DNA from: an uncultured Clostridium sp. | Lineage (GTDB): Bacteria > Bacillota > Clostridia > TANB77 > CAG-508 | Direction of reading: 5' to 3' | DNA length: 64,000 nucleotides | Assembly (NCBI GenBank): GCA_947565445.1 | Contig: CANOGC010000002.1 | Span: 4,631-68,630 of the forward strand | Part shown: positions 2,547 to 41,866 of the stretch, in pieces | Layout of the letters: each line of letters opens with the position of its first letter | Position numbering within the stretch: the stretch's first letter is position 1 | Made by a program: the position numbers and the translations under genes | Notes under the pieces: generated by a model | The model's input: only the letters and a program-made list of their open reading frames with translations | What the model was told of the DNA's origin: nothing | The model's database searches: none

Positions 2547-2580
2547 GTAGGGGCGATTATCAATCGCCCGTGCGCCATGC
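2547..2580 (+). repeat. REP-like element copy 1 (GTAG + GC-rich 8-bp hairpin)
   Basis: Sequence is GTAGGGGCGATTATCAATCGCCCGTGCGCCATGC, with the stem GGGCGATT/AATCGCCC. It is one of 4 near-identical copies (15128, 23107, 41842) and lies between convergent gene ends. Confidence 0.75.
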
Positions 2581-2599
2581 TCCTTTTCCTATAGTTTTT

Positions 2600-4967
2600 T
2601 TATCTTAGTTCTACAACAGTTACACCCATTTCGCCTTCACCAAAAGTACCTAAACGAAAACTTTTTACATGTGAATTTGTTTTTAAAAAATTATGAATGC
2701 CTTTCATAAGAGCACCAGTTCCTTTTCCATGTACAATACGTACATTATTCAGCTTTGCAAGTGCACAATCATCTAAATATTTATCAACTATAAAAACAGC
2801 TTCATCTACGTTATAACCAATCACGTTAATTTCAGAAGTAGCAGTCTTAGCTTTATTTGTTTTATAATTAGAAGAACCAGTAAAAGTTTTTTCTTTAGCA
2901 AAAATAATTTTTGTAATACTAGAAATAGGTAGCATTAGTTTTGCACTACCAATCTGAACTTGTACTTGGTTAGACTTATTTGGGGTACTTAAAATACATC
3001 CTTGTTGGTTTAAATGACTAATATAAACAGTAGCTCCAACTTTTATATCTTCTTTTTCTACAGAAGATACCGATTCTTTAGTATCTATAGTATTAGTAGA
3101 AGTTTCTTTTAAACTTTCATTTAATTTATTGCGGATTTGGTTTAAATCCTTTATAGAATTAGAACTGGCACTTTCATATATTTCATTCATTTTAGAAATA
3201 TAGTAACTTGCTTCATCTTTTGCATCAAGCAAAATTTTTCTTGCTTCTTGTTTTGCTTTATCAATATATGAATTTTGTGTTTCCTTAAGAGATTTTTCCC
3301 TTTCTTCTAGTGACTTGCGAAGTACACTAATTTGGTTTGAATTTTTTTGTATTTGTTCTTTTTCATTTTCAATCCACAATTTATCATCATATATGTTTTT
3401 TAATAATTCTTCAATATGAATTTGATCAGCATCTAAGAAAGATTCTGCTCTTTTTATAATATTATCATCTAAACCTAATTTTTTACTAATAGCAAATGCA
3501 TTACTTCTTCCGAGGGATACCAATTAGTAACTTATAAGTAGGCTTTAAAGTTTCAATATCAAATCCTACACTTGCATTTTCAAAACCATCAGAAATAAGT
3601 GCATAGTTTTTTAATTCTGAATAATGTGAAGTAGAAATAGTAAGACAACCTTTATTTTTTAAAGTCTCCAAAATACTAATTGCTAAACTACTTCCTTCTA
3701 TAGGGTCTGTTCCAGAACCTAATTCATCTAAAAGAACAAGACTTTCAGATGTGCAATTATTTAGGATTTGTACAATATTACGCATGTGAGAAGAAAAAGT
3801 ACTTAGTGATTCTATAATACTTTGTTCATCACCAATATCGGCATAAATATTATCAAAAATGCAAATACTACTTTCATCTTTTGCAGGAATAAATAAACCA
3901 CTACAAGCCATTAAAGAAAGTAAGCCAATAGTTTTTAATGTAACAGTTTTTCCGCCAGTATTAGGACCTGTAATAATAAGAGATGAAAAATCTTGTCCAA
4001 GTTCAATATTAATAGGAACTACTACATCACTAGAAATAAGAGGATGACGAGCATCTATTAGTGAAATTTGTTTGTTATCATTAATATTAGGGAATATTCC
4101 ATTTAATTCAAGCCCATATTTTGCTTTTGCAAAAATAAAATCAATAGTACAAATTGTTGTATAATCTTGTTTTAGTTCATTAACATATGGTGCAAATAAA
4201 GAAGAAATATAAGATAAAATTCTTTCTATTTCAATTGTTTCTTCTGATTGCAAAACATGTAAATCATTGTTTAAGTCGAATACTACCATAGGTTCAATAA
4301 AAACAGTAGAACCGGCTTGCAGAAACATCATGAATAAATCCTTTTACAAAACTTCTATATTCATCTTTAATTGGTACAACATAGCGGTTATTTCTAATAG
4401 TAATAACATTTTCTTGAATATATTTAGAATAAGCAGAAGAATGTATAAAACCATTTAACTTGTCCTTAATAGTATCTTCTAATTTTCTTTTTTCTTTACG
4501 AATAGAAGATAGCTTTGTTGAAGCAGAATCTGAAATAGTATTTTCGTCTAAAATAGAATTTTCGACAGTTTTTATAATAGAAGGGTTTGTGTATAACTTA
4601 GAAAAGTAAGAGTCACTAATAGGAAATTTAGTTATATCACGATCATTATAAAAATAATTTTTTAAATTAGCACTTGTTTTTAAAATTTGGTTTAATTCTA
4701 AAATAGATGAAATATTTAGGGAACCATTACTCCCGCAAAATTTTTAATATATAGTCTATATTACCGAATATTTATAAAATAAGGTTCATTTTGTGTAAGT
4801 AATAAAGTTGCTTCAGATGTTTCTTGCAATAATTTTAAAACAGTATCTTTATTAGAATTTGGTTTTAAATTATGGCATAATGTTTTACCAAAATCGGTAA
4901 CACAAAAAATAGAAAGTTTTTCTAAAATGGTAAAATACTCCAATTTTTCAATATATTTTAAATCCAT
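2600..4967 (-). CDS. mutS2: Endonuclease MutS2; single 787-aa frame only if four in-frame CGG codons are read as +1 shifts
   Basis: Pieces 4761-4967, an unlisted middle frame, 3501-4331 and 2600-3523 join at CGG sites. Coordinates of the C are 4766 (ATT CGG T), 4735 (TTG CGG G), 4314 (AGC CGG T) and 3512 (CCT CGG A). The junctions restore ..HDVSAS-G-STVFIEP.. and ..LLIGIP-G-RSNAFAISKKLGL... Other family features are Walker A GPNTGGKT and a C-terminal Smr domain (VRIVHGKGTGAL). (2368-4)/3 = 788 codons. Confidence 0.9.
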
Positions 4968-5137
4968 AAAATTCGTCTCCTTTTTTTAATGTTACCATTA
5001 TACTACAGAAATATTACAATTTGAATACATTTTGTAAAACTTGGAAAAAAGTATTGCAATTAGAAAAAATATATAGTATAAATATTAATAGATTAAGAAT
5101 AATAATAGTAAAATAATTAGTAAGTGAGGGATTTCAA

Positions 5138-39451: not shown

Positions 39452-39601
39452 AAGAGAGCAAGCATGCTCTCTTTCGTTATATAGTGAAATTCGTCTAAAA
39501 ATGTCGAAAAATTTCAAAATAAAAAGTATTTGTTCGCTTGTATTTAAGCAAGTTTTATAGTATAGTAAATTTTATAGGAGATGAAAATAAAGCAGATGTG
39601 A

Positions 39602-41845
39602 GTGTTGAAAGGAAGAAACAAAGTGGAAATTAGTGGAACATTAAGGGAAATTATTTATCAAAACGAAGTAAATAGCTATACTATTGCAACATTTGAAACA
39701 GATGAAGAAGAATTAACAATTGTTGGTTATCTTCCTTTTATTCATTCTGGAGATAGCCTAAAGCTATTTGGAAAATTTGTAACACACCAAGAATATGGTG
39801 AGCAATTTAAAATAGATTCTTTTCAAAAAATGATGCCACAAACCTTAGATGCACTAGAACAATACTTAGCAAATGGAATTATAAAAGGAATAGGACCTGC
39901 TACTGCAAAAAAAATAGTAAAAACATTTGGAGAAGATACAATACATATTTTTAAATATGAACCAGAAAAATTAGCAAATATTAAAGGAATTACTAAAGAA
40001 AAAGCAGTAGATATGGCGCATGAATTTAATGAAAATTGGGAACTATGGCAAATTGTAGGGTATTTAGAACAATTTGGAATAGGTCCACAAAATGCAAAAA
40101 AAGTATATGAACTTTTAGGTGCAGATGCAATTAAAAAGATAGAAGAAAACCCTTACATATTAATAGATATTGCAAGAGGAGTAGATTTCAAACAAATAGA
40201 TAAAATGGCAATGGACATAGGGATTGATTATAACAATGAAAAAAGAATAGAAAGTGGAATTAAATATAGCCTAATACGCATACGGATATAACCGGACATA
40301 CATGTGTTAACAAAGATAAACTAATACTGTTTGTCCATGATCTTCTACAAGTAGAACAAGAAGCAATTGAAAATAGCTTAATTAACTTAAATGTAAGAAA
40401 AGAAATAGTAATAGAAAAACAAGATGAAACACTAGAACTAGTATACTTATACCCATATTATATGGCAGAACTAACCATTTGCCAAAGAATAACTAATTTA
40501 AAAAATGCAGAAAACAATAAAGAAATTAAAGGATTTAAGAAGGATTTAAAAAAACTAGAAAAAGAATCTAGTTTTGAATTATCTGAAAAACAAAAAGAAG
40601 CATTAGAAATGGTAAATAACGAAAATGTATGTATTATTACAGGAGGACCAGGAACAGGAAAAACTACAATTATAAAAAGTATAATAGAATTATATGAAAC
40701 ATATGGAAAAAAAGTAGTACTATGTGCACCAACGGGAAGAGCAGCAAAACGTATGACAGAGGCTACTGGAAGAGAAGCAAAAACATTACACCGCTTATTA
40801 GAAATTGGGAAAATAGAGGAAGAAATAACAAAAAACGTAGAAAATGAAGTAGCACCAATTGATGCAGATATTATCATTGTAGATGAAGTATCAATGGTAG
40901 ATGTATTTTTAATGAATTATTTAGTAAAAGGAATATATAAAGGAACAAAACTAATATTAGTAGGAGATGCAGATCAATTGCCATCAGTAGGACCGGGAAG
41001 TATATTACAAGATATGATTGAATCTAATACGATAGCAACAATGCATTTAGATAAAATATTTAGACAAGCAGCAAAAAGTAAAATTATTGTAAATGCTCAC
41101 AGAGTAAATGAAGGAATGAATTTTTTAACTAAAGAAGAAAGCTTAAAAGAAGAACAACAAGAAGACTTCTTTTATATTCGTGCAAACACAAAAGAAGAAA
41201 TGATATATCAAGTAATAAGTTTAAGCAGTAAAAGGCTTGCTAGTTTTGGAGATTATGACTTCTTTCAAAATATTCAAGTGCTATCTCCTACAAAAAAAGG
41301 AGGTTTAGGAACAAAAGAACTAAACATAGCATTACAACAAGAATTAAATCCGCCCTCAGATTTCAAAAAAGAAAAAAACAGTATGGGAGTTATTTTTAGA
41401 GAACAAGATAGAATTATGCAAATTAGAAATAATTACGATATCTATTGGGAGAAAAAAGAACCAGTTTATGAATGTGGAAGTGGTGTATTTAATGGAGAAA
41501 TGGGAATAATTGAAAAAATTGATGAGCTAGAAAAACAAGTGAAAATAAGGTTTGATGATGATAAGACTGCGTGGTATGCTTTTTCAGATTTAGACCAAAT
41601 AGAACATGCATATGCAATTACTGTTCACAAAGCACAACGGAAGTGAATTTGATGTAGTAATTATGGTAGTTCCGCCATCTTCTAGTATGTTATTAACAAG
41701 AAACTTACTATACACAGGATTAACAAGAGCAAAAAAGATGCTTATTGTAATAAGTCAAGATAGAATAATTGAAGGTATGATACAAAATGCAGATACGAAA
41801 AAAAGAAATACAGGCTTAGTATATAAATTGAAAAATATAATGTAG
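39602..41845 (+). CDS. recD2: ATP-dependent RecD-like DNA helicase (RecD2); three +1 shifts at in-frame CGG 40283, 40293, 41638
   Basis: GTG 39602 is the start used here (start uncertain). ATA CGG ATA TAA CCG GAC.. decodes as ..LIRI-G-YN-G-HTCVNKDKLILFVHDLLQVEQEAIENSL.., which links to ORF 40462-41646 (Walker A GGPGTGKTT). CAA CGG A restores helicase motif VI, ITVHKAQ-G-SEFDVVIMVV. (2244-3)/3 = 747 codons. Confidence 0.9.
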
Positions 41846-41866
41846 GGCGATTATCAATCGCCCGTA
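41842..41866 (+). repeat. REP-like element copy 4 (overlaps the recD2 stop codon)
   Basis: GTAGGGCGATTATCAATCGCCCGTA. The TAG stop of recD2 (41843-41845) is the TAG inside the GTAG head. Confidence 0.7.

Follow-up and report, generated by a model that had tools for sequence, protein, structure and literature searches.

Four short hairpins in a 64-kb stretch of DNA (the window; contig CANOGC010000002.1) from an uncultured mouse-gut member of the Clostridia are very probably repetitive extragenic palindromic (REP) sequences, members of a family that is found widely among Clostridia and belongs to a system of the REP-associated tyrosine transposase (RAYT) type, the pairing of REP and RAYT being known from related genomes only. 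The unit consists of T-GTAG, an 8-bp GC-rich hairpin made of GGGCGATT, a 2-3-nt loop and AATCGCCC, and then G-Y, with a short second hairpin following it in the source lineage. Such REPs would be recognised as folded single-stranded DNA (ssDNA) by a tyrosine transposase of the Y1, HUH type, the RAYT or TnpAREP, whose single-copy gene would be carried between two inverted REPs. By binding the hairpin together with the 5' GTAG and by cutting and rejoining single strands, the enzyme would scatter copies into intergenic DNA, mostly just behind genes, where they may serve secondarily as hairpins at mRNA 3' ends. A REP/RAYT origin had been proposed in an earlier note on this DNA and is supported by the analysis, related genomes carrying the sequence of the third window copy as an inverted pair around a RAYT gene.

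The exact pattern GTAGGGGCGATT-N2-3-AATCGCCC was located by pattern search of the window at 2547-2569, 15128-15150 and 23107-23128, all on the + strand, and gave 0 matches in 100 dinucleotide-preserving shuffles of the window. A fourth occurrence of the core GGGCGATT..AATCGCCC was found at 41845-41863. The consensus of the four same-strand copies is (T)GTAG-GGGCGATT-N2-3-AATCGCCC-G, with starts at 2547, 15128, 23107 and 41842; these are the positions and the single orientation that had been given in the earlier note. Copy 4 has the sequence GTAGGGCGATT, in which the first G run is shorter by one G. The note had written this copy with one G too many, while its assignment of the TAG of copy 4 to the stop of recD2 was correct. 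Degenerate copies were searched for in the 64 kb with up to 3 mismatches allowed and none was found, giving a window total of four. A further 9 kb of contig was walked on the downstream side; the other GC-rich perfect hairpins of the window and of this 9 kb included no further REP members, only unique, terminator-like hairpins.

In all four copies GTAG was joined to an 8-bp GC-rich stem with a 2-3-nt loop, in agreement with the description of such repeats as palindromes of 20-40 nt that can fold into a stem-loop and bear an unpaired GTAG (or GTGG) at one end (Di Nocera 2013), and the DNA folds of the four had energies of -7.7 to -13.4 kcal/mol. The GC-rich stems stand out from an AT-rich background (window GC 28.5%) and the copies lie at gene 3' ends, both as the note had described: every copy was extragenic or overlapped a stop codon, and every copy was at or just past the 3' end of a gene. 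An Rfam scan of the whole window at gathering thresholds gave no match, and no tRNA or tmRNA was found by searches of the window.

RAYT genes were found beside the same sequence in related loci. A six-frame profile search of these loci returned four open reading frames (ORFs) of ~150-250 aa adjoining the motif (L041, L006, L052 and L018) that match Pfam Y1_Tnp. The RAYT of L041 had 1539 homologues at E<=1e-10, some of them named 'REP element-mobilizing transposase RayT' by JGI. At each of the 11 loci inspected, which represent at least 5 gene neighbourhoods in related genomes, the RAYT gene lay between two inverted copies of GTAGGGGCGATTTTAATCGCCCG, their GTAG ends facing outward; window copy 3 has this very sequence. 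The earlier note had proposed to look for such a RAYT gene between inverted REPs; it was present in all of these related loci and not in the window. The distal REP starts two bases past the RAYT stop codon. The protein (~150 aa) contains the HUH residues H79-I-H81, W114-Q115, Y135 and N139, and its best solved relative is E. coli TnpAREP (PDB 4ER8, E=1.9e-5), in which Y115/N119 align with Y135/N139. The WQ region has been tied to GTAG recognition (Quentin et al., PMC6006769). RAYTs found beside the same REP in high-GC and in low-GC Clostridia were 33-45% identical, and each RAYT variant was confined to one fixed neighbourhood across many samples and looks like a single-copy gene. Comparison by tblastx of four loci with a RAYT gene between inverted REPs (REPtrons) against the window gave no orthologous neighbourhood. 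The RAYT of the source species was also sought by sample overlap; P0016, P0045, P0097 and P0003 were all from other samples. In the REPtrons of L041 (1455-1487, 2056-2090) and L130 (2880-2908, 3475-3510) an outer inverted repeat of ~26 nt (TCAGACCAAAATTAAAAATGTAGAGT) was seen beyond both REPs, a hint of a larger unit that is, or once was, mobile.

When one genome per prokaryotic species was scanned for the 20-nt motif, at least 119 loci in at least 83 other assemblies were located. Among the matches listed, the hosts were mostly uncultured Clostridia (Oscillospiraceae, Faecousia, Christensenellaceae and Clostridium species), with a few in Bacteroidaceae, Methylococcales, Marinobacter, Myxococcales, Chloroflexi, Patescibacteria and Nitrospirales; host GC ranged from 25 to 66%, the flanks of 170 copies were unrelated, and 41 of the 170 had an opposite-strand partner no more than 300 bp away, many copies forming inverted doublets. 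Since the flanks are unrelated across many genomes, the motif is a discrete dispersed unit and not a conserved regulatory region. Doublets resembling bacterial interspersed mosaic elements (BIMEs), which the earlier note had wished to see checked together with orientation, were thus present in relatives but not in the window. Related loci held ~1 further copy per 17 kb. A scan of metagenomes for the REP followed by the lineage-specific tail (RYRTGGC) produced 3 matches, none of them informative. The exact motif was found in 12 of 2.9 million viral contigs (IMG/VR, L171-L182), and phages are not an obvious vehicle for it.

Sites were also picked by the head GTAGGGGC alone, which yielded 128 sites with another arm sequence (GGAT, GACC, GAGC, GAAC, GGTT, GAAT and others). 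A perfect stem of at least 7 bp was formed by 55% of these 128 sites and by 0.4% of shuffles, as expected of compensatory change; in such sibling families it is the structure that is kept, not the sequence. Beside the RAYT gene in L052, ~10 REPs follow one another head to tail in tandem at a period of 31 nt (929-1232, 3098-3180), GGGCGATT/AATCGCCC taking turns with a compensatory variant, GGGCGGTT/AACCGCCC (GGCGGTT-type arm). In low-GC hosts the 5' edge of the element is sharp, with T at -1 in 81% of copies and background composition further upstream, and on the 3' side the stem is followed by G (88%) and then Y (97%). The next ~15 nt on the 3' side in these hosts have a GC content of 38%, compared with 23% in the 5' flank, and are more structured (p=2.5e-4).

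Two types of tail were observed in relatives, one being GTTCTTCGAAGAAATTAC and the other a second mini-hairpin, GTGGC-AAA-GCCAC in L051 and L038. With their tails, window copies 2 and 3 read GCATGGCGAAGC and GCATGGCAAAGC, respectively. In sister haplotypes the tail of copy 2 is ATGGC-GAA-GCCAT, a perfect 5-bp stem, and the fold of L135 has an energy of -13.3 kcal/mol (z -5.1). Judged by this comparison, the window tails CATGGCGAAGCTAT and CATGGCAAAGCTTC are one-step decayed versions of the second hairpin. Copy 1 with its tail reads GTGCGCCATGC, which contains CGCCATGC. The tail sequences of copies 1-3 are as the earlier note had described them, but the inverted tail that it gave to copy 1 is better explained as the arm of a decayed mini-hairpin: by comparison with the second hairpin intact at copy 2 in sister strains, CGCCATGC would be the surviving 3' arm.

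Relatives were compared at matching sites at 71-89% nucleotide identity, at which presence or absence of the element could be read. In L051 recD2 ends in AATATTTAG, without a REP. In L010 the REP behind groEL has other flanks and an extra REP, absent from the window, is present in the groES-groEL spacer. L085 carries a REP in reversed orientation in the feoB-feoA spacer, alongside two other GTAG hairpins, and L119 has a doublet at a site where the window has none. Presence and absence at orthologous sites, the mark of mobility, was therefore observed between species.

Several results weigh against the assignment of the four hairpins to a RAYT-type REP family. Only 4 copies lie in 73 kb (window plus 9 kb), a modest density, and each of them is a singlet, all of one orientation, with no BIME and no REPIN (REP doublet forming a hairpin) among them. 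No RAYT was detected in the window by six-frame jackhmmer with the L041 protein, and there is none in the 9 kb of extra contig. The best NCBIfam model for the Y1 proteins of the related loci, REP_Tyr_transpos, scored 57-70 bits, the curated cutoff being 80. BIME doublets are the substrate of the E. coli enzyme, which requires a mismatched stem (PMC3333891), whereas the clostridial stem is short, a perfect 8 bp, and without a mismatch. An empty-site/filled-site pair was sought against L051, L010 and L119 and none could be reconstructed, the intergenic DNA being too diverged. Within the species, copies 2 and 4 are essentially identical in 10 samples each, with no sign of current mobility; for copies 1 and 3 the contigs obtained at strain level were too few to reveal variation. 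This identity across ten samples each marks the window copies as old and fixed; being singlets, fixed and with decayed tails, they are probably relics.

The strand bias of the element has points on both sides. Among singlets in low-GC hosts GTAG was on the locally G-rich strand in a ratio of 38:7 (p=3e-6), a bias that is confounded with gene orientation, since local skew follows gene direction, and that was not seen in high-GC hosts (17:13). Paired copies were split 11:10, as expected of pairs. By local GC skew, replication and transcription are inseparable for copies between co-directional genes, and the informative cases are convergent and divergent contexts together with window copy 2. In convergent and divergent gene gaps of low-GC hosts GTAG was still on the G-rich strand 10:1. 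Cumulative GC skew climbs steadily along the window, so that the + strand is leading-strand sequence throughout, and the four window copies all agree with this long-range trend, copy 2 included, whose orientation is opposite to that of its operon. Excision and insertion of IS608 and ISDra2 take place on the lagging-strand template (PMC3333891, PMC6006769), and the G-rich strand is this template. Taken with this behaviour, the bias is suggestive of fork-coupled, strand-specific deposition.

It is improbable that the hairpins are host transcription terminators or stabilisers of mRNA 3' ends, kept for that function and not mobile DNA. Such a role would suit the position of all four copies at or just after gene 3' ends, the spacing of copies in relatives (0-10 nt from upstream stops and never less than 44 nt from a downstream start), and the minus strand of copy 2, on which GGGCGATTAATAATCGCCC and then CTACATTTTA passed a terminator scan. 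Copies 1, 3 and 4, however, have no T-tract on either strand and hence not the U-tract of a terminator; hairpins that always sit with a U-tract, which the earlier note had named as speaking against REPs, describe copy 2 only, and only on its minus strand. Copy 3 stands directly behind a separate and proper AT-rich groEL terminator hairpin (23074-23106). An identical 20-nt sequence in assemblies of such different GC and with unrelated flanks is not terminator-like evolution, and the same sequence flanks RAYT genes as an inverted pair. Because the stem is a perfect palindrome, an RNA function would also leave the 38:7 strand bias unexplained. A secondary RNA role at mRNA 3' ends is possible and is compatible with REP sequences.

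A very small chance is given to miniatures of IS200/IS605 (resembling palindrome-associated transposable elements, PATEs, or miniature inverted-repeat transposable elements, MITEs), with an ordinary TnpA(IS200), present in many copies, as their mobilising enzyme in place of a domesticated RAYT. A Y1 HUH enzyme, ssDNA hairpin recognition and lagging-strand-template orientation are shared with IS608 and ISDra2, in which that bias is known behaviour (PMC6006769, PMC3333891), and the Y1 protein matches Pfam Y1_Tnp and, weakly, NCBIfam transpos_IS200. The score with this IS200 model (21.7 bits) is nevertheless much lower than that with REP_Tyr_transpos, which is the best family match, and the best solved relative is TnpAREP. 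The gene is situated between two identical inverted GTAG hairpins in place of distinct left and right ends, it looks single-copy, and tnpB is absent; the elements are cargo-free single hairpins of 23-40 nt without a second end. Least credible, to the point of being nearly negligible, is a site for a conserved host protein with no mobile origin, whether operator, nucleoid-protein site or DNA-uptake signal. A perfect 8-bp palindrome, strict sequence conservation and extragenic location would be consistent with such a site, but there is no promoter or regulon association (the contexts are feo, groEL, recD2 and mutS2), presence and orientation vary at the matching sites of relatives, and the density is far under that of uptake sequences. 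Sibling families keep the pairing and change the sequence; selection therefore acts on the structure and not on a sequence recognised as duplex. None of the elements is a regulator of feo, groEL or recD2.

RAYT group 4, or TnpAY1 subclass 2.4, occurs in Cyanobacteria, Bacteroidetes and scattered phyla and is associated with 'double-foot' REPs. The clostridial system resembles it in having double-foot palindromes (GTAG..CTAC) in L094 and L089, in the absence of a C-terminal extension, in a conserved N-terminal motif and in its scattered phyla. In L006 a REP (6754-6776) lies inside the RAYT ORF on the opposite strand, leaving the frame intact, and a REP within the tnpAREP gene is a peculiarity of subclass 2.4 (Quentin et al. 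2018, PMC6006769). The spacing from HUH to Tyr is ~56 aa in the clostridial protein, compared with a median of 88 for the subclass (PMC6006769). With the E. coli REP/BIME and TnpAREP system (RAYT group 2, Bertels 2017; subclass 2.2, Quentin 2018; 4ER8) are shared the 5' GTAG beside a GC-rich hairpin, extragenic sites after genes, the Y1/HUH gene between inverted REPs, and the HUH, WQ and Y..N residues (PMC3333891, PMC6006769). Unlike in E. coli, most clostridial copies and all four window copies are singlets and not BIMEs, the protein is distant from TnpAREP (E=1.9e-5), compact and without a C-terminal extension, and the hosts are low-GC Gram-positive anaerobes. The REPIN-RAYT system of Pseudomonas (group 3; Bertels and Rainey 2011) is similar in its single-copy RAYT, its cognate GTAG hairpins and, in some hosts, inverted doublets. 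In Pseudomonas the REPIN doublet is regarded as the replicating unit. Singlets dominate here, by contrast, and are strand-biased, and the REP sequence is not species-specific but common to hosts whose RAYTs are 33-45% identical.

Nearly all that has been worked out about REP/RAYT systems comes from Proteobacteria. GTAG repeats were reported from Proteobacteria, Cyanobacteria, Chloroflexi and the Planctomycetes-Verrucomicrobia-Chlamydiae (PVC) group only (Di Nocera 2013, PMC3733652), a list without Firmicutes, and Clostridia were mentioned for group 1 only (Bertels 2017). No paper joining REPIN, RAYT and Firmicutes was found in the literature searched, in keeping with the remark in the earlier note that such families are little documented in Clostridia. 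The kind of element is well known; the host group, uncultured gut Clostridia, is little documented for it. One defined REP with its own RAYT clade (>1500 homologues), common in uncultured gut and rumen Clostridia, would widen the host range of these systems. It would also account for conspicuous GC-rich hairpins in AT-rich genomes, which can break assemblies and create spurious ORFs or stops. As a substrate the element is simple, with a perfect 8-bp stem, mostly singlets and a strand bias, and this bears on how REPs disseminate. A tentative and rather doubtful extension is that a lone REP hairpin, in place of a REPIN/BIME doublet, is the unit that moves in this family; GGGCGATT/AATCGCCC would also have been kept across hosts of 25-66% GC with RAYTs ~35% identical, as an unusually old and constrained enzyme-substrate pair. 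If the single hairpin is indeed what moves, a Gram-positive model for the question of REP spread would be available.

Positions of the REP copies and their tails in the window are as follows.
Feature	Position	Strand	Description
REP copy 1	2547..2570	+	GTAG + stem GGGCGATT / loop ATC / AATCGCCC + G
Tail of copy 1, TGCGCCATGC	2571..2580	+	contains GCCATGC; pairs also with GCGTA upstream of stem
REP copy 2	15128..15151	+	GTAG + GGGCGATT / ATT / AATCGCCC + G
Tail of copy 2, CATGGCGAAGCTAT	15152..15165	+	decayed second hairpin
REP copy 3	23107..23129	+	GTAG + GGGCGATT / TT / AATCGCCC + G
Tail of copy 3, CATGGCAAAGCTTC	23130..23143	+	decayed second hairpin
REP copy 4	41842..41864	+	GTAG + GGCGATT.. 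(one G fewer) / ATC / AATCGCCC + G

Copy 1 lies where a DUF2207 fragment (stop 2540-2542) and mutS2 (stop 2600) converge, their 3' ends being 57 nt apart, and its ssDNA fold has an energy of -13.4 kcal/mol (z -4.05). Copy 2 is antisense to the feo operon and was found in all 10 samples of the species; it lies, as the note had placed it, in the feoA-feoB spacer, which measures 62 nt from feoA (15168-15398, -) to the first feoB fragment (14923-15105, -). A serine recombinase gene follows or interrupts the 3' part of feoB in certain conspecific strains (L135, L137, L140 and L141, ~3090-3231, corresponding to window ~13800). The recombinase is 520-560 aa long with Resolvase and Recombinase domains and is absent from the window strain.

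Copy 3 is in the convergent gap between groEL and a 47-aa ORF, and its tail runs into the right arm of a long inverted repeat. This repeat (23054-23159; arms 23054-23074 and 23141-23159, core CTAGATATTAGAA / TTCTAATATCTAG) encloses the groEL terminator and copy 3, has an RNA fold of -49.4 kcal/mol (z = -7.4), and might be either a terminator working in both directions or some larger composite element. The 47-aa ORF (23155-23298, -) is extremely Cys/Gly-rich with a hydrophobic centre; it has no Pfam match and is a gene call in public assemblies.

The TAG of copy 4 (41843-41845) is the stop of ORF 41606-41845, the C-terminal recD2 fragment with a UvrD_C_2 domain, and this stop codon comes from the inserted element. 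The copy has no conserved tail, is identical in 10 samples and lies 47 nt upstream of a comF-like gene, after which the next gene (42576-44546) encodes a 656-aa KAP-family P-loop NTPase. Two more low-GC copies (L102 ~599 and another locus) likewise stand at a stop-to-GTAG distance of -3, where TAG is the in-frame stop of the ORF upstream. Such copies hint that insertion occurs beside stop codons, or that insertions bringing a stop are selected for. They would also be accounted for if GTAG/TAG were an insertion target that existed beforehand.

Frame-split genes were observed in the window at recD2 (39602-41845; 229+394+79 aa), feoB (12959-15105; 60+363+277 aa, with a frame change at an A5 run near 14930), mutS2 (2600-4331; 276+307 aa) and DUF2207 (598-2542; 511+131 aa), and downstream a U32 peptidase gene is in three pieces. 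The same splits were present in ~10 independent samples and are therefore not assembly noise; the source organism may be accumulating pseudogenes.

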